Assembly (NCBI RefSeq): GCF_023055435.1 | Contig: NW_025963890.1 | Coordinates: 48,112,001-48,176,000 of the forward strand | Source of the DNA: Haliotis rufescens | Lineage: Eukaryota | Length of the DNA: 64,000 nt | Reading direction: 5' to 3' | Shown here: one piece after another, positions 13,872-63,189 of the stretch | Position numbering within the stretch: the stretch's first letter is position 1 | How the letters are laid out: every line of letters begins with the position of its first letter | Position numbers and translations under genes: made by a program | Notes under the pieces: generated by a model | What the model saw: only the letters and a program-made list of their open reading frames with translations | Told to the model about the DNA's origin: nothing | Databases searched by the model: none

Positions 13872-13879
13872 TACCACAC

Positions 13880-14165
13880 AAGTCGACTCCTGTCTTCCTG
13901 GGCTGGAGGAGAAACATATCCATGTAGCTACAGCCTATTATATGTGACACTTACCTCCACACAAGTCGGCTGCTGTCTTCCTGGGCTGGAGGAGAAACAT
14001 ATCCATGTAGCTACAGCCTATTATATGTGACACTTACCTCCACACAAGTCGGCTGCTGTCTTCCTGGGCTGGAGGAGAAACATATCCATGTAGCTACAGC
14101 CTATTATATGTGACACTTACCTCCACACAAGTCGGCTGCTGTCTTCCTGGGCTGGAGGAGACACA
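13880..14165. repeat. 83-bp tandem repeat containing acceptor and donor motifs
   Basis: Unit starts at 13898, 13981, 14064, 14147; degenerate homologue at 21250-21440. Confidence 0.9.
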
Positions 14166-14921
14166 TACCCAAGGTTACAACATGGCTTTCATATGACATT
14201 TACAGTTGAAGTAATGTACAGCTAAACTGTTAATATCTCTTACAGACAGTTGAAACAAAAATATTCAATAAGTCCCAAGAATGTCTTCAATAGTATCTAG
14301 ATTTCTTCAGATTTCAGAAAATACTCTTTAGTCTCCTTTCTATCATATGTGACCCACCAGGATTTGTTTGTTCGTTTTTCAACGCCGCCCTCACCAATAT
14401 TCCAGCTATATGATGGCGGTCTGTAAATAATCGAATCTTGACCAGACAATCCAATGATTGACATCATGAGCATCGATCCACGCAATTGGGATATGATGAC
14501 ATGCATCAACCAAGTCAGCGAGCCTGACACCCAATCCCGATAGTCGCCTCTTACGACAAGCATTGTCGCCTTTTACGGTAAGCATGGGTTGCTGAAGATC
14601 TATCTAGGATACAATTGTGCTATGACGTCATAAAGACGTTTGACGTCAACTTACTTCCATGAAGATTGATATGTGTGATATCATGCATCTCTGTAATAAA
14701 TATTAATTGAAGCTTGTGAATTGCATATTTGTGTTCCAAAGATGCTGTAGTTCTAAAATATAATGAAAAGTCAAGTCCCTTATCAAATGGTTGGTCACAT
14801 ATATTAATAGACAATTTAACAAAACAATATTGAAATATGTTATAATTTCAGAGACTAAATACAAATATTGTACAGCATTGCTTAAGTCAGTCATATAGCA
14901 ACAATGGTGACCAGAGTAAAA

Positions 14922-21140: not shown

Positions 21141-21441
21141 GTTCGGACTGGGAGAATATTGTTCAGTACACTGTCGTCAGTGTTACAGCTGGGTCATGGA
21201 CAATGTTAGTAAAAAAAGTTGAATCAGACAAACTAGTGGTTGATGGCATGAGCACCATGTATTGCCACCCAGGAAGGAAGCGTCACATATAATAGACTGT
21301 AGCTATATGGATATGTTTCTCCTCCAGCCCCGGAAGAATGCAGCTGACTTGTGTGGAGGTAAGCGTCACATATAATAGGCTGTAGATACATGGATATGTT
21401 TCTCCTCCAGCCCAGGAAGACAGCAGCCGACTTGTGTGGTA

Positions 21442-36400: not shown

Positions 36401-39400
36401 CTGCTGTCTAAGCACTGTGGAAGAATCAGCCACCTCAAGGTGTTTTTGGGGGCGATGACAGGGAAGAAAGAGAGTGTAAGTCTGGTTACATTATATTCCA
36501 TGCATTGGTTACTGTATACTCCATGCATTGGTTACATTATATTCCATGCATTGGTTACTGTATACTGCATGCGTTGGTTTCTGTATACTCCATGCATTGG
36601 TAACTGTATACTCCATGCATTGGTTTCTGTATACTCCATGCATTGGTTACTGTATACTCCATGCATTGGTTACTGTATACTCCATGCATTGGTTACTGTA
36701 TACCCCATGCCTTTTGGTTACTGTATACTCCATGCATTGGTTACTGTATACTCCATGCATTGGTTACTGTATACTGCATGCATTGGTTACTGTATACTGC
36801 ATGTGTTGGTTTCTGTATACTCCATGCATTGGTTTCTGTATACTCCATGCATTGGTTACTGTATACTCCATGCATTGGTTTCTGTATACTCCATGCATTG
36901 GTTACTGTATACTCCATGCATTGGTTACTGTATACTGCATGCATTGGTTATTGTATACTCCATGCATTGGTTACTGTATACTCCATGCATTGGTTACTGT
37001 ATACTCCATGCATTGGTTACTGTATACTCCATGCATTGGTTTCTGTATACTGCATGCATTGGTTACTGTATACTGCATGCATTGGTTACTGTATACTCCA
37101 TGCATTGGTTTCTGTATACTTCATGCATTGGTTACTGTATACTCCATGCATTGGTTACTGTATACTCCATGCATTGGTTACTGTATACTCCATGCATTGG
37201 TTTCTCTATACCCCATGCATTGGTTTCTGTATACCTCACTCACTCACTCACTCACTCACTCACTCACTCACTCACTCACTCACTCACTCACTCACTCACT
37301 CACTCACTCACTCACTCACTCCTAAATGTGAAAATTACAGCCTACCTAATACCTATTTTCATTGGAGCTCACAAAACTTTGTGCTAACAATCTTTCCGTG
37401 CTATTCCAGCTGCAGGCTCCACAGTTGACTGTCCTGAAAAATGTCACAGCATTTAAGATCAAGGTCAAGGTCTGTGATGAGAACTCCTCGAAGTCTGAAA
37501 AACAGAAGGAACTGGAACACTTACTGGACGTCGATGGGGAGGTGTACCGAGCAGAGACCATGGATCTCGAGATACGGTATGCAAACCTTTTAGTTGGAAC
37601 TGTGACAATGTATACAGTATGCAAACTTTTTAGTTTGAACTGTGACAATGTATACGGTATGCAAACTTTTTAGTTCAAACTGTGACAATGTATACGGTAT
37701 GCAAACCTTTTAGTTGGAACTGTGACAATGTATACAGTATGCAAACTTTTTAGTTTGAACTGTGACAATGTATACGGTATGCAAACCTTTTAGTTGGAAC
37801 TGTGACAATGTATACAGTATGCAAACTTTTTAGTTTGAACTGTTACAATGTATACGGTATGCAAACCTTTTAGTTGGAACTGTGACAATGTATACGGTAT
37901 GCAAACTTTTTAGTTCGAACTGTGACAATGTATACGGTATGCAAACTTTTTAGTTCGAACTGTGACAATGTATACGGTATGCAAACTTTTAAGTTCAAAC
38001 TGACAATGTATACGGTATGCAAACTTTTTAGTTCAAACTGTGACAATGTATACGGTATGCAAACTTTTTACTTCGAACTGTGACAATGTATACGGTATGC
38101 AAACTTTTTAGTTCAAACTGTGACCATGTTTGTTTCAAAACCGTTAATTTTTAAAGAGTATATTGTGTCATTCTGTGCAATCCAGTCACACAAACATCTC
38201 AATTCCTTGGAAATAGAAAAATGCAATAGCATATCTTATGCAGTGAGGCCTTGTAGTCCTGTTGACCATCAAAGGAATATGAAGTTCTGCATAAGTCAAT
38301 ACAATCAGACCAGCATGTGGATAAGGATTCCGCAGGGCCATGAAGTTACATTGTCTTCATCGGTATAGCGAGCTAAGAGTTAAAAAACTTTAACTGTGTA
38401 ATTTTCAACCTCTAACATATCAGGGGCGGTCGGGTAGCCCAGTGGTTAAAGTGTTCGCTCGTCACGCCGAAGACCCGGGTTTCGATTCCCGACATGGGTT
38501 CAATGTGTGAAGCCCATTTCTGGTGTCTCCCATCGTGATATTGCTGGAATATTGCTAAAAGCGGCGTAAAACCATACTCACTCACTCACCCACTCACACT
38601 TACATATCAATTATTATTTTATTTTTTAAACGTTTTTATTGTTGTTGTAGATTAATACAGTATTCCGTCAAAGACATATTTTGGATTGCATAGAATGGCA
38701 TAATACACTCTTTAAAAAATAACATATCAATTATTGATATATGATGTTTTATCTTACCTGTCGCTACACAGTGCTACATTTTACAAACAGACAGTCCTGG
38801 AACAGAGAGACAGTTGAAACAGACTATAGCCTGTGCACCGATACCCACGAGTTATAAGCCTTGGCCTGTAATTCCTTATATTCTTCTCTGTCTGCTTTGC
38901 ATCTTACAGAAGGGCTGTTGTTAAGCGCACAAGACAACTTGCAAAACAGAAGATAATGCCAGGCCTTCCTCCTCTGGTTCTCAACCCCTCCTCCACCTCT
39001 ATGCCTTCGGAGTCTTCCTCTATGTCATCGCCGGCACCCCCGGGTCTTCCTCCCAAGTCGATGTCCTCCACCTCTATGTCTTCAGAGTCTTCCTCTATGT
39101 CATCGCCGGCACCCCCGGGTCTTCCTCCCAAGTCGATGTCCACCACCTCTAAGCCTTCGGAGTCTTCCTCTTTGTCATCGCCGGCACCCCGGGTCTTCCT
39201 CCCAAGTCGATGTCCTCCACCTCTATACCTTCGGAGTCTTCCTCTATGTCATCGCTGGCACAACCGGGTCTTCCTCCCAAGTTGATGTCCTTCACCTCTA
39301 AGCCTTCGGAGTCTTCCTCTATGTCATCACCGGCACAACCGGGTCTTCCTCCCAAGTCGATGTCCTCCACCTCTAAGCCTTCAGAGTCTTCCTCTATGTC

Positions 39401-42400
39401 ATAGCCGGCACCCCCGGGTCTTCCTACCAAGTCGATGTCCTCCACCTCTATACCTTTGGAGTCTTCCTCTATGTCATCGCTGGCACTCCCGGGTCTTCCT
39501 CCCAAGTAGATGTCCTCCACCTCTAAGCCTTCGGAGTCTTCCTCTGTCATCGCCGGCACAACCTGGTCTTCCTCCCAAGTCGATGTCCTCCACCTCTAAG
39601 CCTTCGGAGTCTTCTTCTATGTCATCACCGGCACAACCGGGTCTTCCTCCCAAGTCGATGTCCTCCACCTCTAAGCCTTCGGAGTCTTCCTCTATGTCAT
39701 AGCCAGCACCCCCGGGTCTTCCTACCAAGTCGATGTCCTCCACCTCTATACCTTTGGAGTCTTCCTCTATGTCATCGCTGGCACTCCCGGGTCTTCCTCC
39801 CAAAAAGATGTCCTCCACCTCTAAGCCTTCGGAGTCTTCCTCTGTCATCGCCGGCACAACCGGGTCTTCCTCCCAAGTCGATGTCCTCCACCTCTAAGCC
39901 TTCGGAGTCTTCCTCTATGTCATCGCCGGCACAACTGGGTCTTCCTCCCAAGTCGATGTCCTCCACCTCTATGCCTTCGGAGTCTTCCTCTATGTCATCG
40001 CCGGCACAACCGGGTCTTCCTCCCAAGTCGATGTCCTCCACCTCTAAGACTTCGGAGTCTTCCTCTATGTCATCGCCGGCACAACCGGATCTTCCTCCCA
40101 AGTCGATGTCCTCCACCTCTAAGCCTTCGGAGTCTTCCTCTATGTCATCGCCGACACAACCGGGTCTTCCTCCCAAGTCGATGTCCTCCACCTCTAAGCC
40201 TTCGGAGTCTTCCTCTATGTCATCGCCGTCACAACCGGGTCTTCCTCCCAAGTCGATGTCCTCCACCTCTAAGCCTTCGGAGTCTTCCTCTATGTCATCG
40301 CCAGCACCCCCGGGTCTTCCTCCCAAGTCGATGTCCTCCACCTCTAAGCCTTCGGAGTCTTCCTCTATGTCATCGCCAGCACAACCGGGTCTTCCTCACA
40401 AGTGGATGTCCTCCACCTCTAAGCCTTCGGAGTCCTTCTCTATGTCATCGCCGGCACAACCGGGTCTTCCTCCCAAGTCCATGTCCTCCACCTCTAAGCC
40501 TTCGGAGTCTTCCTCTATGTCATCGCCGGCACCCCCGAGTCTTCCTCCCAAGTTGATGTCCTCCACCTCTATGCCTTCGGAGTCTTCCTCTATGTCATCG
40601 CCGGCACAACCGGGTCTTCCTCCCAAGTCGATGTCCTCCACCTCTAAGCCTTCGGAGTCTTCCCCTATGTCATTGCCGGCACCCCCGGGTCTTCCTCCCA
40701 AGTCGATGTCCTCCACCTCTAAGCCTTCGGAGTCTTCCTCTATGTCATCGCTTGCACCCCCGGGTCTTCCTCCCAAGTCGATGTCCTCCACCTCTAAGCC
40801 TTCGGAGTCTTCCTCTATGTCATCCCCAGCACAACCGGGTCTTCCTCCGAAGTCGATGTGCATCACCTCTATGCGTTCGGAGTCTTCCTCTATGTCATCG
40901 CCAGCACAACCGGGTCTTCCTATAAAGTCGATGTCCTCCACCTCTATGCTTTCGGAGTCTTCCTCTATGTCATCGCTGGCACCCCCGGGTCTTCCTCCCA
41001 AGTCGATGTCCTCCGCCCCAGTGGATTTTTTTAATCCAGCATCCATCCATGCTTTTTTAGAACAACTGCTTCAATTGATGCAGCAACCTTGGTCTGGCAC
41101 CTCCCTCCGTCAGTTTCCTCTGTCCAGCCATCTTCTGTAGGAGGGAGGCTTCAAACTTACTGGAGGCTTTGGGAGTTCCTGCAGGATCTGTGACTGGGAT
41201 CCTCCGTCGCGGGTTCCGCCCGCAGTTTCGTGCCATTCCTCCTCTCACTACCAATCAGTTGGAACCTAGATACTGGCCTCTAGATCTGCTGGGCTCTGCA
41301 GGCCAATGTCAACATTCTGATTGCCAAGGATGCGGTGGAAGCCCTGGATGCCTCTACCATCATGCCAGGATTTTACACCCTGTCTTCGTGGTGCCCAAGA
41401 AGAGTTCAAAGATGCGAATGATTCACAATCTGGCGCTATTCAATTAACACTACCTCGCTCCTCCGCTGCATTTCCCAATGTTCTCCGTACACTTCGCCAC
41501 ATGATCCAGCCGATGGACCACCTCATCAGTCTGGACCTGCAGGATGCCTACCTGCATGTTCCCATTCATGCAGCGCATCGTCGATTCCTCTGTTTCATCT
41601 CCAGGTGGAAAGTGCTTCCATTTCGAATTTCCACAGCCCCGTGGTTGTTCACTTGTACCATCAAGCCCATCATTGCGTTCAACGCATTCATCGACGACTG
41701 TATCCTCAGCCACATCATCCTGCAGGTCCTGACACGTCAAAGGGACTTAACCCTTCAACCCTTGGCTTGGTTGGGTGGTCAACTTGGAGAAATCAGATCT
41801 TACTCCTTCTCACAACTCATCAGCAGCCTCTTTCTAACAGAATGCAACTTGATACAAGTTCCGCCAGATCGGTTCCAAGCCATCCAGTCCGGGTCCAGAT
41901 AGCACTCTGTCAACCCTTCAACCTCCAACAGTCGCAGACTTTACTAAGTCGTTTGCCTTCGGCTCAAGATCTTAGGGGCGGTCCGGTAGCCTTGTGGTTA
42001 AAGCGTTCGCTCGTCACGCTGAAGACCCGGGTTCGATTCCCGACATGGGTACAATGTGTGAAGCCCATTTCTGGTGTCCCCCGCCGTGATATTGCTGGAA
42101 TATTGCTAAAAGCGGCGTAAAACCATACTCACTCACTCACTCACTCAGGATCTTACCTCAAGGGGTCACCCTCAAGTACATCCCCTTCAGTGGTTTCTCC
42201 TACCGTTTCTGCGCTTACACCTGACAGGTACCCCCCACTCTGCCTGTAGAGTTCGGGCCGTTTTTGGAGTCGTGGTTAGCCCCATCCAATTTCATGAGTG
42301 GTACCTCTATATTTAGGTTCAAGGCCACCCACCATGTATTTGTAGACACGTCTCTCCAAGGAAACAACATGCGTTCTTTGGACGCTGACCAAACGTTCCT

Positions 42401-43959: not shown

Positions 43960-44632
43960 CCCAGTTGATCAAAATTGTCTGTTTACTGATGTCACAGACA
44001 GCTCTATATTTACCAATTGGTCCATATTGCCTGTTTACTGATGTGACAGACAGCTCTATATTTACCAGATGGTCCATATTGCCTGTTTGCTGAGGTTACA
44101 CACAGCTCTATACTTACCAGTTGGTCCATATTGCCTGTTTGCTGATGTCACAGACAGCTCTATATTTACCAGTTGGTCCATATTGCCTGTTTACTGATGT
44201 CACAGACAGCTGTATACTTCCCAGTTGGTCCATATTGTCTGTTTACTGATGTGACAGACAGCTGTATACGTCCCAGTTGGTCCATATTGCCTGTTTGCTG
44301 ATGTCACAGACAGCTCTATATTTACCAGTTGGTCCATATTGCCTGTTTACTGATGTGACAGACAGCTCTATATTTACCAGATGGTCCATATTGCCTGTTT
44401 GCTGATGTCACAGACAGCTCTATATTTACCAGTTGGTCCATATTGCCTGTTTACTGATGTGACAGACAGCTCTATATGTACCAGTTGGTCCATATTGCCT
44501 GTTTGCTGATGTCACAGACAGCTCTATATTAACCAGTTGGTCCATATTGTCTGTTTGCAGATGTGACAGACAGCTCTATATTTACCAGTTGGTCCATATT
44601 GTCTGTTTGCAGATGTCACAGACAGCTCTATA
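43960..44632. repeat. 52-bp minisatellite
   Basis: TTGGTCCATATTGCCTGTTTRCTGATGTSACAGACAGCTCTATATTTACCAG, about 12.5 copies. Confidence 0.95.
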
Positions 44633-47600
44633 GTTTCTGATTGATTCTGTACACCGATGTCAATAGCCAAAATGAAATTGACAATCGTTTTTCTCGTTTT
44701 TTATGCTGGAATGTTCATGGGTTGTTTAGTAAGCTGTCAAATGACAACTTTAATTCGTATTTGGAAACATTTGACGTTATTTGTTTATTTGAAACATTTC
44801 TTGACTCAGTCGACTTCGATTGGTTACCTGGATTTAAAGTCTTCTACTCCCCGGCGGTAAAGCTGTCCGGTCGTGGGAGAAAATGTGGTGGTGTTTGTTT
44901 TGCCATTAGAAATGAGTTTGCTCAGTTTTGTAATGTATTTAATAGTAATTCCGGTATTGATAATTTCTTGTCAATTATATTGAAGAAAAACCTCTTTGGA
45001 ACGCCTAAAGGTGTATTGTTTTGCCCCTTGTACATACCACCAGAAAACTCTACATACTATGACAAACATCAAAATATTAACATACATGATAAATTCGATG
45101 AATTCTTTCTTGATAGAGCAGACCGTCTCTCTGAATACACTGTGCTTCTTTGTGGAGATTTTAACTCTAGAACAGGTTGTGAAAATAATTTAGTTGATCA
45201 AGAATCGACCACAAATGATCCCGATATTTTCCCTGAAATTGACATTGTAGATGCATGTATATCTTGGCTTGACAATGTTATTAATAAGTTTGGACGATTT
45301 CTAATTAACTTCTGTTATGTTTTCAACTTGTTCATACTAAATGGCAGAGTTAATGGCGACATGAATGGTGAATATACATTCATTAGTGGTAATGGTAGTA
45401 GTACTATTGATTCTTTTATTGCCTCATCTGATTTCTACAAGTTTGTTTATAATCTTACAGTTGCCGAGAGTCTTGACTCGGACCACTGCCCTCTTGAACT
45501 GAGTTGTTCATTTCCACGAGAAAACACAAATAGATTTTCACAATCTAATAGCACTAACTCGGCAGGTAGATTTGTATGGAATGAATTGCATAGAGATGAA
45601 TTTGTACACTGTCTTAGTGATCGTTTGGCTGAAACTTCACAGACTCTTCTGACTACGCTAAACACTAACATAAACGATGCAGTTGATCTTTTTGTAAATC
45701 TACTACTTGAGTCAGGGCAGTGTATGAAAAAAACAGTTCTTGGAAATAAACCACGTAAATATACTTTCAATTTAAACAGCGAGTGTAGAGAACATAGGAG
45801 ATCAGCAAGACGAACGCTAAGAAAGTTCCGTAAAAATAGATCTGAATCTAATAGGAAAACTTATTGTCAGTTACGCAACAAATATAAAACAGAATGTAAA
45901 AGCTTTTTAAAATCCCTTAAACTAACCAAATTAAATCATCTAAATGCCTCATTATCAAACCAAAAACGGTTCTGGAGAGAAATTAATTCTCTACGCAGTC
46001 CATCATCTGTTCAGAATAATATCACAGGCACAGAGTGTCTGACTCATTTTAAGCATGTGTTTAGCAATGATCTTATATTCCATGATGTTATTGAACATGA
46101 GCATGACGATATTGCTGTTTATAACCCATCAGATGTTGAGTTTGACATTCTTGAGTCCGAAATAACAAGAAAGGAAATTCTCGATGCTATTGACTCACTT
46201 AAACCTGGAAAATCTCCAGGCCCTGACAATATCTTAGCGGATATGCTGAAGAGTTTCAAACACATAACTGTTCCATTTTTGCATTCTCTCTTTAACGACA
46301 TATTCAACAAAGGTATATTTCCGTCAACTTGGTCAAAATCTATCATTGTTCCTCTATTTAAGAAGGGTGATACAAGCGATCCTGATAATTATAGAGCAAT
46401 TTCATTGACAAGTATTTTAGGTAAAGTTTTTGCTATAGTTTTAAACAAGCGTTTAACGCTCTGGTCTAATGTTTATGATAATATTCCAGAAAATCAGGCA
46501 GGCTTCAGACGATCATATTCACCTATCGACCATATTTTTACACTTTATTCTATTGTACAAAAATATCTTGGATGCCGGGAACGAAAACTGTATGTTGCAT
46601 TTGTGGACTTCAAAAAAGCTTTTGATAGTGTTAATCGTTGTAAACTTTGGGATTGTTTGAGAAAAACGGGCGTTGGGGGTAAAATGTATAAAATGTTAAA
46701 ATCTATATATGCAAATGTCAAATAATGTGTTTGTCACAAAAATGGTGTCACTGATTACTTTGATTGCCCTATCGGTGTGAAACAAGGCTGCATTTTTAGC
46801 CCTCTCCTTTTCTCTTTCTTTATCAACGAATTGTCCCTTGAAATCCAACAAAACGGAAAACATGGTGTCCAACTTTATCCAGATATGTATGAATTGCTAA
46901 TATTACTTTTCGCAGACGATGTTATACTAATTTCTGATACTGTTAATGGGCTTCAAACACAAATAGACATATTGTTTCAGTATACTATCTCCTGGAAACT
47001 GACCGTTAATACAGATAAAACGAAAATTGTTGTTTTTAGAAAGGGGGGTCCTCTTGCATCCAGGGAAAAATGGTATATAAATGGGCAACAAATTAATGTT
47101 GAAAAAACTTATAAATACCTTGGTGTCATTTTTCCTTTTAATCTGAAACTAAATCACCTCGTCAACGATATTGCGCTACGAGCTAAGAGAGCCCTCATTA
47201 CTTTATTTGTTGTTCTTGATAAACTCCATGTGTCTTCCCCGTCTGTTTTCTTCAAACTTTTTGATTCTCAAGTTAAACCAATTCTGTTATATGGTTCAGA
47301 GATTTGAGGTCTCGAGAAATATCACATCTTGGAAAAAATTCACTTAACTGCATGTAAACGATTCTTAAATGTTGCCAAATCTACCCCAAATTGTATGGTG
47401 TATGGTGAATGTGGAAGACATCCCTTATATATCTGTTCTTATGTACGCGGTCTAAAATATTGATTAAAAATTACAGAAATGTCACCTCATCGTATTCCAC
47501 GTAAATGTTATGAAATGCTGAAATACCGCGACAATGTTGGTTATATAACATGGGTCACTAAAATCAGACAACTTTTATTTCTTCATGGATTTGGATATGT

Positions 47601-55009: not shown

Positions 55010-55232
55010 TCCGGGATCATTCAAACTATCACACACTGTCCAACTGTCTAAATCTCAACTAGAGTCCCTGATCATTCAAACTATCACACACTGTTCAGCT
55101 GTCTAAATCTCAGCTAGAGTCCCGGATCATTCAAACTATCACAAACTGTTCAGCTGTCTAAATCTCAGCTAGAGTCCCGGATCATTCAAACTATCACACA
55201 CTGTTCAGCTGTCTAAATCTCAACTAGAGTCT
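55010..55232. repeat. About 56-bp tandem repeat in the TCEANC2 3' UTR region
   Basis: Four copies of GATCATTCAAACTATCACACACTG... Confidence 0.85.
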
Positions 55233-55464: not shown

Positions 55465-58400
55465 TCATTTCTGAAATGTCTTCACAAATTCTTCAACAGG
55501 CATTTCTCTGGCTTTAACTTTGTTTTTCACCTCTTCTTTATTCCTGAGAGTGAAGACTACCGTGCGCATTGTCCTTCGGTAGTGGACATTAATCAGCCTC
55601 TTGCTCACATAGAACACTTCTCTCTCTATTGCCTCAGGAAGACTGTGGGACAGCTGAGAATCAATCAGAATGACATATTTAACATATCTCACAAGCTGCA
55701 ATCCTAATTCTAAAATGCTTCCCTAAAAGATCAAAGGCGCTGACTGTACTTCATCCTGCGATAAAGTACACTTTGTGGGTTACGTTATAATAGACCCGCA
55801 ACCAACGTCATGGCACTGTTCAAACTACCTCCCCCATGATCTAACGTATCCTTGGTAACATCGTTCTTTCATTACTGAGAGGCAAGATGGCACATCGACA
55901 TCAAATTTCGGAGAAATAGTTTGTTTAAACTCGTCAAATATTTTAATATTATTTCCTGGAGAGAATTAAGGGCAATATCATAAACAGGACCCATAATGCG
56001 GTGTCCTGAGATCTTGTTTAGAAGTAGTGAGAGTGAAGATCTGATTTTAATGAGATTGATACTCTAAGCATGTGATGATGCTGAAGATGTTTGTTGTTTA
56101 ACGCCGCACTCAGCAATATTCCAGCTATATGATGGCAGTCTGTAAATAATCAAGTCTGGATCAAACAATCCAGTGATTGACATCAGGAGCATCTGAGCAC
56201 AATCAGTTACCTCTAGAGAAAGGGCGTCTGCGATGAAACGTTTTCCTGATGCTCTCATTTTTTCTGTCTTTGCATCACATTTCACTTCAATTTGTGGCCG
56301 ATCAAGATGATCCTTGAAGTGACGCCTCCACTTGAGGTACACCCGTCGCGCTTCACTCGAAACTTGGTTATCTTCATGTTTGCGGAATCGATTTACAACT
56401 TTTCCTTGAAAAGTAAGAACAAACAGAAAAATAATTGATATACAACAATAATAACACAAAATTGACCGCTCAAAATCGTTTCCGCTAGATAGTTTGATAA
56501 AACAAAGTCATTTGTCCCTGACCTCATTTATGCAGACAATACATATAATGACAAAAAGAACAAGCTTCAATCAAATGGTTAAAAACATTGATATTTCATC
56601 TATTTCCGCAAGATAGTTTGAAAGGTTTAGCAAAGTGTTACAAACAAATGCTTGAATAGTTTGATTGGTTTAGCAAAATGCTAAAGACAAATGCTTGAAT
56701 AAAAACATTGATATTTCATCTATTTTGGTAGACAACAAACTAGATCCTCACCTATTTTGGAGGACAACAAGACTAGATCCTCACCTATTTTGGAGGACAA
56801 CACGACTAGATCCTCACCTATTTTGGAGGACAACACGACTAGATCCTCACCTATTTTGGAGGACAACACGACTAGATCCTCACCTATTTTGGTAGACAAC
56901 AGGACTAGATCCTCACCTATTTTGGTAGACAACACGACTAGATCCTCACCTATTTTGGTAGACAACATGACTAGATCCTCACCTATTTTGGTAGACAACA
57001 GGACTAGATCCTCACCTATTTTGGTAGACAACAGGACTAGATCCTCACCTATTTTGGTAGACAACAGGACTAGATCCTAACGTATTTTGGTAGACAACAG
57101 GACTAGATCCTCACCTATTTTGGTAGACAACAGGACTAGATCCTCACCTATTTTGGTAGACAACAGGACTAGATCCTAACGTATTTTGGTAGACAACATG
57201 ACTAGATCCTCACCTATTTTGGTAGACAACATGACTAGATCCTCACCTATTTTGGTAGACAACATGACTAGATCCTCACCTATTTTGGTAGACAACATGA
57301 CTAGATCCTCACCTATTTTGGTAGACAACATGACTAGATCCTCACCTATTTTGGTAGACAACAGGACTAGATCCTCACCTATTTTGGTAGACAACAGGAC
57401 TAGATCCTCACCTATTTTGGTAGACAACAGGACTAGATCCTCACCTATTTTGGTAGACAACACGACTAGATCCTCACCTATTTTGGTAGACAACATGACT
57501 AGATCCTCACCTATTTTGGTAGACAACAGGACTAGATCCTCACCTATTTTGGTAGACAACATGACTAGATCCTCACCTATTTTGGTAGACAACAAGACGT
57601 GTCTAGGGGGTATCTTCTTCCCAAGTTCCTTCAAACAGTCCACAAGAACATCCTTTGACTGATTTTCTAGTTTCAGCTTGTTCTTGAGACGCTGGATTTC
57701 CTCGATGACCACGACCCCCTGGAACAACAACAGGTTCAAGATGCAATAACTTGTCATGGTTTTCAACACTATTTGATTTGGTTGGACTGCTGGTTAAAAT
57801 TGATGGTGCATTATGACACTTTCTGCCAAAATATGAGAAGCTTATTTCATATCAAGATGTGTCTTGATCATCACTTGACATGTGTCAAAATTAAAATGAT
57901 ATAAACATATACGTTATATGAAAATATATTGTTAAATACTACTTTCGAATAGTACATGCATTTGCATGAGTGATACGAAGCTATTGTTGATATACCGACA
58001 CTCGGAATCCTCAGCCCGATAAGTGTTGAGATTTCATCATATTGAAACAATAAAGTGTAATACAGGAACATAGATGATAAATAACTGTACTTATCCACTC
58101 AGTAATGCCGAGTTGTTGTCGACACAGGCACTACAGACATCTACCCCATTCTAGAGAAAATGTGAAGAAAAAACCCATTCACAATCACAAGGTCTCAAAT
58201 ACGTTCTCGTCATCTCGAGACAGACTTCTACCTTTCATTAGCTCCACAAAATATAGCTCATGTGTAGCATCTATTATTCACGTGTAATCAATTGTATGCT
58301 GTGAATTTGGGGCCATGGCCTACATTCTTGCGAAATACACTACATATTAGTCCAGTGCTATATATGTCTAACGAGGCTAATGGCTTTGTTCGGTTTGTCT

Positions 58401-58553
58401 CATTCTCAAGATGCATAAGGTGATGTGTTAGTGTGACTCGATCGTTTCCGTTTTCACCTGCAAAGATTCAATTGTCGCCTGTCTAAACTGTTTTTTCTTC
58501 CCTGGGGAAGATTGTCCACCCTGTTTTCTCGTTCTGGTCACAAATTTGTCCAT
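55465..58553 (-). CDS. TCEANC2: Transcription elongation factor A N-terminal and central domain-containing protein 2 (206 aa)
   Basis: Exons 58553-58458, 57718-57577, 56404-56211, 55653-55465. MDKFV...[53 protein letters not shown]...[12 protein letters not shown] all match TCEANC2. Confidence 0.93.
56714..57598. repeat. 33-bp tandem repeat spanning the TCEANC2 exon 2 donor
   Basis: About 27 copies of TTGTCTACCAAAATAG|GTGAGGATCTAGTCVTG (minus strand). Confidence 0.95.
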
Positions 58554-61856: not shown

Positions 61857-62678
61857 TTATTCTTCCTTGTTCTTAACACCTTGAAGGAAAAATCGACAGA
61901 TAAAGGTTGTCCACAACGACAGTACTGCACACAAACTGAGTACAAACCGTAGTCCCTTGAACCATGGTGGGTACCCAGGCACTACAGTGTCGAAATATGC
62001 AGACCCTGCAATACCAGCCATCACAGTGAACACAGACACAGGGTCTGGGAGGAGAAGTCCCGCCCACGCCACCAGAGAGGGGGTGACGCTGTAGCCCAAA
62101 TTGAACCAGTCAGGTTTATGATAGCTCTCTTCAGGTACCACAAACCCCCATCGCACCCCTCCGAGAAAAGACAGAATGACAGCGCCATAGGCCAGCTGAG
62201 CAAAAGCAATCTGTGGCATGTACAGTTGTGACATGGTCATATACACTGGTGCTGACACAAAGGGAATTAAACCAGAAAATCCAAGAACTAAGGCCGGGAC
62301 TGGGGATGATCTTAGTTCTTTTAAATTTGTCCACACGGTGAGAGCGCGGGTTTCTCTGTCTTCTGAAATGAATCGTTTCTGGATGCCAATTTCATGTGAT
62401 TGTGTGTGCACACGGCTCCATGCTGGAACACAGAATGTAGACAAAAGGAATACACTTCTGTTGCAGAAAACAGCATTATTGTGTTGAAAACTCTTCAATC
62501 TTTGACAGTGTTGAAACACATTTGTGTGATGTGTGGACAGTGTTCTTGAAGCATATTCTGGGTCTGCTCTAACCAATCCATGAAAACGTCTTGCTGCTAT
62601 ATATCTGCAGCAGGCTAACTGTGTGACAGCAGGGAGTTCCCGGGAAGCTCTTTGTAAAGATGTCAACAGGAGTTTCAT
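61857..62678 (-). CDS. TMEM69: Transmembrane protein 69 (DUF3429), 273 aa, single coding exon
   Basis: Acceptor ttttcag at 62711, ATG at 62678. SPVPALVLGFSGLIPF, QLAYGAVILSFLGGVRWG, PDWFNLGYSVTPSLVAW, YPPWFKGLRFVLS. Basic N-terminus resembling a mitochondrial presequence. Confidence 0.92.
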   Translation of the reverse strand: MKLLLTSLQRASRELPAVTQLACCRYIAARRFHGLVRADPEYASRTLSTHHTNVFQHCQRLKSFQHNNAVFCNRSVFLLSTFCVPAWSRVHTQSHEIGIQKRFISEDRETRALTVWTNLKELRSSPVPALVLGFSGLIPFVSAPVYMTMSQLYMPQIAFAQLAYGAVILSFLGGVRWGFVVPEESYHKPDWFNLGYSVTPSLVAWAGLLLPDPVSVFTVMAGIAGSAYFDTVVPGYPPWFKGLRFVLSLCAVLSLWTTFICRFFLQGVKNKEE

Positions 62679-63189
62679 GATTGGTTGTATATGTAGGAAC
62701 AGTTTCTTCCCTGAAAATTTGAGACAGGCATTAAATAACAATATTTGCATACATACCCAATGAAAGCCAGTAAGATGAATGCATGTACCAGAAAATGTAT
62801 GAAATAGCATTACTCTTCATAAACTTATTTGCTTGATTGTATAATACCAATTGTTTCAATGGTGGTTTTTTTTATCTATTCTTGCTAACAGTTTCCAAAT
62901 TATCTTTACTTACTAATATTAATTTTATTATATGCTATCTGCTATTCTTTGTTACGTAAAAATCAATAGTTCTAGCTGCCTTACAGGCTCCACATAGTAA
63001 GTGCAAATTTGAATGAAGATGAAACTTCACATGGCGAAGTTGCACTGCAATGACAATGCATTGATTACAGTTAGAAATGTTACACACGAAATAATTAAAT
63101 GATATCATTCAATGCAGTCTTTACTGAAAGTGACAGGCCTATAAATAAGATATAACTTTCAACAACCTTGCCGAGGACTACCTCTCGGG

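Follow-up and report, generated by a model that had tools for sequence, protein, structure and literature searches.

The window, i.e. the whole stretch of 64,000 nucleotides from Haliotis rufescens that was analysed, carries on its minus strand a TCEANC2 gene of four coding exons (58553-58458, 57718-57577, 56404-56211 and 55653-55465), which encode 206 aa when spliced through the first donor of exon 2 (donor 1). The resulting protein, of about 206 aa, combines a TFIIS N-terminal bundle (PF08711) with a TFIIS central domain (PF07500), and is identical to a public TCEANC2-like protein (P0026) from a cluster of five with a representative labelled Haliotis. Exons 1-2 are single-copy in the genome. 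Donor 1 falls in codon G80, within the motif S76-T77-K78-I79-G80 that is invariant and gap-free in all 17 homologues aligned (17 of 22 search matches). The AlphaFold model of another abalone protein (P0001, mean pLDDT 84) places STKIG as a turn between helices 71-77 and 79-86, and the nearest solved relative is a TFIIS N-terminal domain (7cnf, E 6.5e-4). The exons are as follows, with contigs taken from the runs compared below.

58458..58553, minus strand: TCEANC2 exon 1, coding part, ATG at 58553, with the transcribed 5' end reaching at least 58634 (joint 57717/58457, CT..AC, cut +1, in X2, X5 and X10; X10 contig to 58634)
57577..57718, minus strand: TCEANC2 exon 2, 142 nt, with the authentic donor 1 at its end (contigs over 57576-57717 show 0 differing letters, the loose end being the exon 3 start)
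56211..56404, minus strand: TCEANC2 exon 3, 194 nt, carrying the second half of the Pfam PF08711 TFIIS helical bundle (parsing, contigs, Pfam)
55465..55653, minus strand: TCEANC2 exon 4, coding part, with Pfam PF07500 TFIIS_M, below the curated cut-off on exon 4 alone (joint 55653/56211 in four of four runs; Pfam)

The 3' region of the gene holds a tandem repeat of four 55-bp units (55010-55231), and its upstream neighbour on the same strand (61857-62816) is a long exon with a DUF3429 domain (E 4e-38), which we take to be TMEM69-like.

A minisatellite at the exon 2/intron 2 boundary

Tandem Repeats Finder reports an array at 56716-57598 with a period of 33, 96% matches and 0% indels, its 26.8 copies being those of one assembly allele. 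On the minus strand the unit consists of 22 nt from the end of TCEANC2 exon 2 followed by 11 nt from the start of intron 2, such that the first unit straddles the authentic exon 2/intron 2 boundary and the donor signal is repeated head to tail within the intron. An exact 32-nt unit pattern matched the 1.33-Gb genome 20 times, in all 20 cases at this locus (control 0). An assembly artefact was considered for the array and ruled out, repeat contigs being present in independent runs.

Sequence parsing finds the exon-side part of the unit in 27 copies, 26 of them followed by GT; these comprise 24 intact donors (AG/GTGAGG) and two variants (AC/GTTAGG, copies 13 and 16), whilst copy 27, which carries a 1-nt deletion, is followed by ATGAAA and has no donor. 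The array and unit anatomy given in the original prediction are therefore real, with its count of about 27 donors amended to 26. Its statement that the first 12 donors are identical and in frame to exon 3 agrees with our parsing: donors 1-12 descend in 33-nt steps from 57577 to 57214, and all are in frame to the acceptor, exon 3 beginning at base 56404. The frame stays open through the array until a TAG at 57178-57176. The original prediction had also described a unit near 57180 in which a damaged donor and a TAG cap the ladder; the weakened donor and the TAG are both present, but since the TAG lies 3' of that unit's GT, splicing at variant donor 13 would likewise leave the frame open. The same variant unit occurs twice, as copies 13 and 16; judged from the sequence of the units, the stop in copy 13 seems to stem from normal turnover of the repeat and not to act as a cap. 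The parts of the array are listed below.

56716..57598, minus strand: 33-bp junction-spanning minisatellite, 26.8 copies, made of the last 22 nt of exon 2 and the first 11 nt of intron 2 (TRF, parsing, genome pattern match)
57214..57544, minus strand: pseudo-donors 2-12, with a 9-nt donor identical to donor 1, in frame and stop-free, no use seen (parsing, contigs)
57176..57181, minus strand: variant unit 13, a weakened donor followed by the in-frame TAG at 57178-57176 (parsing)
57077..57082, minus strand: variant unit 16, with both changes of unit 13 and a TAG at 57079-57077 (parsing)
56752..56872, minus strand: distal block of copies 23-26, sharing a two-base variant that turns Ser-Thr into Ser-Ser in the exon frame (parsing)
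56720..56741, minus strand: terminal copy 27, with a 1-nt deletion and no GT; the sister-species run X17 also has a copy with its deletion at the corresponding place (parsing, contigs)

A 26-nt stretch from the distal end of the array (56700-56725) recurs 120 nt deeper in the intron (56580-56605), and the array may on this account end at a microhomology junction.

Minisatellites are very dense in the window as a whole (56 TRF rows). An 83-bp unit with a near-perfect donor consensus, for which no exon is shown, occurs in 3.6 copies on the minus strand at 13874-14171, and two related copies lie 7 kb away in the opposite orientation (21278-21439). A 75-bp array of 27 units at 38989-41014 contains open frames of up to 537 aa with no Pfam match; at 43961-47307 a 52-bp array directly precedes a LINE-like frame that encodes endonuclease and reverse-transcriptase domains and is interrupted by a stop at about 46723.

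Donor choice in assembled contigs

Of 24 listed runs, 20 contain the locus, in every case as assembled contigs. Six of the runs (X2, X5, X9, X10, X12 and X17) were compared by way of these contigs, which derive from short reads by a procedure in which rare forms are lost. The runs are not recorded as RNA, and RNA origin was read from spliced joints: on the exon 3-4 side, a contig skipping intron 3 (in which an interspersed repeat is present) was found in four of four runs (X2, X5, X9 and X12), whose contigs are therefore RNA-derived. On the exon 1-2 side, one contig each in X2, X5 and X10 skips intron 1 and exits at 57576 with the letters of exon 3, at depths of 99.9, 27.7 and 11.4, respectively. 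At contig level, donor 1 (57577) is joined to exon 3 (56404) in all three runs with exon 2 cover, representing three studies, and in X2 and X5 positions 57577 and 56404 occupy adjacent letters of one record (902 and 913 letters). In the X9 contig, the 140 letters ahead of exon 3 are the exact remainder of exon 2 expected with donor 1, which fits the same junction and is not decisive.

Among all records of X2, X5 and X10 (1, 2 and 6, respectively; contig level), none connects exon 3 to a donor beyond the first, as the spliced contig is the only one partly aligned in each of these runs; the comparison on the exon 1-2 side spanned donors 1 and 2 only, and sequence across a later-donor junction may be too short for alignment. 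Exon 2-3 junctions carrying extra 33-nt units, proposed in the original prediction, were thus absent from the contigs, and 57577 was the sole donor seen, the outcome that the prediction itself had named as a refutation, here at the level of contigs, not of reads. The accompanying proposal of a splice-tunable protein repeat finds no support, the contigs of the three runs with exon 2 cover using donor 1 exclusively.

X2, at a depth of about 100, has one unbroken contig and no repeat contig. X5 has a single 63-letter repeat contig of depth 11, lacking intron-1 cover and unspliced at its donors, whose five differences fit copies 25-26, beyond the stops; X10 has two repeat contigs of depth 2-3, alongside intron-1 cover. 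The repeat contigs of both X5 and X10 keep intron letters after each donor, and we infer that they represent pre-mRNA or DNA summed over many copies. The contig data may leave room for rare transcripts from later donors, either longer and of small share or degraded by nonsense-mediated decay (NMD).

This bears on a leaky ladder, in which donor 1 dominates while low, unregulated use of donors 2-3 yields minor isoforms that carry one 11-aa insert or two, as in human IFI6 and CBS. The donors are identical in sequence, contigs lose rare variants, only donors 1 and 2 lay within the compared stretch, and the two human genes offer precedents in the available text of a study of human F7 (PMC1557585); against this, X2 at a depth of about 100 yields a single unbroken contig with no repeat contig, and no insert isoform occurs among the proteins found. 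We regard such leakage as possible, if somewhat doubtful; should it amount to no more than a per cent, it would be compatible with later donors that are otherwise silent.

Our preferred explanation, which we consider very probable, is that a minisatellite lies across the TCEANC2 exon 2/intron 2 boundary and that the assembled mRNA uses the first donor only, the other 25 being likely silent and removed with the intron. The array is then likely to be a tolerated intronic repeat rather than a tuner of protein length. Donor 1 would win because it is transcribed ahead of the others and lies closest to the acceptor of exon 2, defining an exon of 142 nt, as opposed to 175-967 nt via later donors. If splicing occasionally slipped to donors 2-13, the products would contain in-frame inserts, probably misfolded, within STKIG, the motif that is invariant in 17 of 17 homologues; with donors 14-26, a stop would come 222-618 nt ahead of the last (exon 3/4) junction, and NMD would likely remove the transcript. 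Principles of exon definition and NMD underlie the first-donor and decay steps of this proposed mechanism, which draws on the human F7 case and general knowledge of these two processes.

The decay step could itself be the point of the array if donors 14-26 were appreciably used and their products degraded, so that array length or composition set the dose of TCEANC2. Products with a stop 222-618 nt ahead of the exon 3/4 junction would be invisible in steady-state RNA, and X5 does have a repeat contig of distal type at depth 11. That contig is, however, unspliced at its donors, the spliceosome would have to bypass 12 identical open donors for which no use is seen, and in F7, according to the available text, exon skipping rises as the first usable donor moves downstream (PMC1557585). 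We consider such dosage control very unlikely.

Two further observations concern the intron 1 side. A relative's shorter isoform (P0023) begins within intron 1 (57719-57883), where the frame is open in the window; X10 contigs cover this part, the X9 contig starts at about the start of exon 2, and an alternative start or intron-1 retention is possible. X10 also shows two intron-1 haplotypes (57725-57809), one with three variants common to X17, possibly reflecting mixed ancestry or pooled animals.

Reading frame, turnover and codon 74

In a crude simulation of donor-spanning duplications, 33% had lengths that were multiples of three and 65% of those were stop-free, giving about 21% overall. Whilst the array is far beyond chance, its in-frame and stop-free property is not, and the unit length being a multiple of three is likely to be chance. 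The 25 units hold seven variant types, of which two are synonymous, four change a residue and one creates a stop; two of seven, against 27% expected at random, indicates no synonymous bias, with few events and low power. The open part varies by L/M/V changes only. A query made of exon 2 plus 12 units of the array, run over proteins of 98-314 aa (7998 candidates scored), found the repeat in none of 22 TCEANC2 relatives and none of the five members of the P0026 cluster (0 of 26 proteins in all). Pfam matches of the read-through frame (DUF3903, Apolipoprotein and Cmr2) were below cut-off and were discarded as repeat artefacts. Nothing points to coding use of the array.

The variants within the array cluster in blocks, with copy 13 equal to copy 16, copies 23-26 alike and copy 27 degenerate. 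Since variants lie in blocks and the last copy is degenerate, turnover has probably proceeded by slippage or unequal crossover, and the array presumably arose when 33 bp spanning the exon 2/intron 2 junction were duplicated. X17, a DNA-sized run from a sister species, differs at 33 of 962 letters of intron 1 and has no contig cover over exon 2; among the records listed (8 of 19), it contains contigs of the repeat, a go-back joint and a last copy in which a 1-nt deletion of that kind recurs. The array is therefore likely to be older than the split of H. rufescens from this sister species. Gain of the intron itself by tandem duplication was rejected, the intron position being apparently old and the unit lacking a polypyrimidine acceptor. 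An unrelated record (P0022) diverges from its family immediately 3' of STKIG, a break consistent, on sequence alone, with an old intron at that place.

These data also bear on the possibility that regulated choice among the 12 donors sets how long an insert the TFIIS N-terminal domain receives, the copy-13 stop serving as a cap. Such tuning would draw on the unit length being a multiple of three, on the 12 identical open donors and on the persistence of the array in the sister species. Set against it are the sole use of donor 1 in three of three runs (contigs), the lack of synonymous bias with only L/M/V variation in the open part, the invariant and gap-free insertion point, and an open frame expected by chance in about 21% of cases; taken with these, regulated tuning appears extremely improbable.

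A different kind of contribution to the protein is hinted at by codon 74. Two of 206 residues separate the window protein from P0024, its nearest relative; one of them is residue 74 (window 57595), Leu here and Met in three other abalone proteins (P0024, P0025 and P0001). The codon 74 base is the most variable site of the array (of 26 copies, 11 have C, 8 A, 5 G and 2 T, a count that includes the T of the exon itself); copies with A keep the Met codon, and T occurs otherwise at the distal end only. The chance that one of two changes falls in the unit's seven codons is about 7%, and residue 74 is Leu in more distant homologues. The change hints at exchange between array and exon, which a point mutation would explain equally well. 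A fuller proposal, in which the array acts as a reservoir whose recombination or gene conversion rewrote codon 74 from Met to Leu, together with a minor ladder of in-frame isoforms of allele-dependent reach, seems to us unlikely; were array-exon exchange to be shown, repeats within introns would count among the origins of amino-acid changes in conserved domains.

Relation to known junction-spanning repeats

The abalone array is a junction-spanning minisatellite of the F7 or mirage type, an architecture already known. At the protein level TCEANC2 offers no departure from its family (PF08711 plus PF07500), the array being intronic. By title and abstract opening, no report on the TCEANC2 array locus was found in the literature on abalone or mollusc minisatellites and splice sites, or in that on TCEANC2 among the matches listed.

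The closest parallel is the 37-bp minisatellite in intron 7 of human F7, where, in the available text of Borensztajn et al. 2006 (PMC1557585), 50 constructs used the most upstream functional donor alone, which was preferred even over in-frame pseudo-sites. The original prediction correctly saw the abalone locus as a test case for how the first of several identical donors is chosen, and the same architecture had already been tested there (PMC1557585). In both genes the first unit lies across the exon-intron boundary, identical donors extend into the intron and the most upstream is used. The two differ in that F7 has 5-9 copies with 4 exon bases each and the abalone array 26 copies with 22 exon bases each, in that the first 12 abalone donors are all in frame, unlike those of F7, and in that F7 was tested with minigenes and the abalone locus with contigs, as far as the F7 text available describes its system. 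The same text cites junction-spanning minisatellites of 10-26 units in IFI6 (6-16) intron 2, CBS intron 13, LMNB2 and PDGF intron 4 (PMC1557585). IFI6 and CBS splice at two pseudo-donors in addition to the true one, LMNB2 and PDGF at the true one only (PMC1557585); the latter pattern is the one seen at the abalone array, from which IFI6 and CBS differ, although IFI6, with 25 pseudo-sites, equals the abalone array in their number.

Among invertebrates, the lancelet 'mirages' of the Adh3 and globin genes are boundary-crossing minisatellites that leave splicing undisturbed, in the portion of that report available (PMC3087553). They resemble the abalone array in occurring in an invertebrate at an exon-intron boundary, in their concerted evolution and in ends that are less homogenised, whilst length instability is shown for the mirages (PMC3087553) and only hinted at for the abalone array.

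Set beside these systems, the abalone array extends first-donor selection to a mollusc, and is otherwise of little consequence as it stands. At 19 nt before the junction, donors 1 and 26 have T and donors 2-25 have A, C or G; with the first 12 donors in frame and their products escaping NMD, this diagnostic base would make the locus a clean natural assay of donor fidelity in counts of raw reads.
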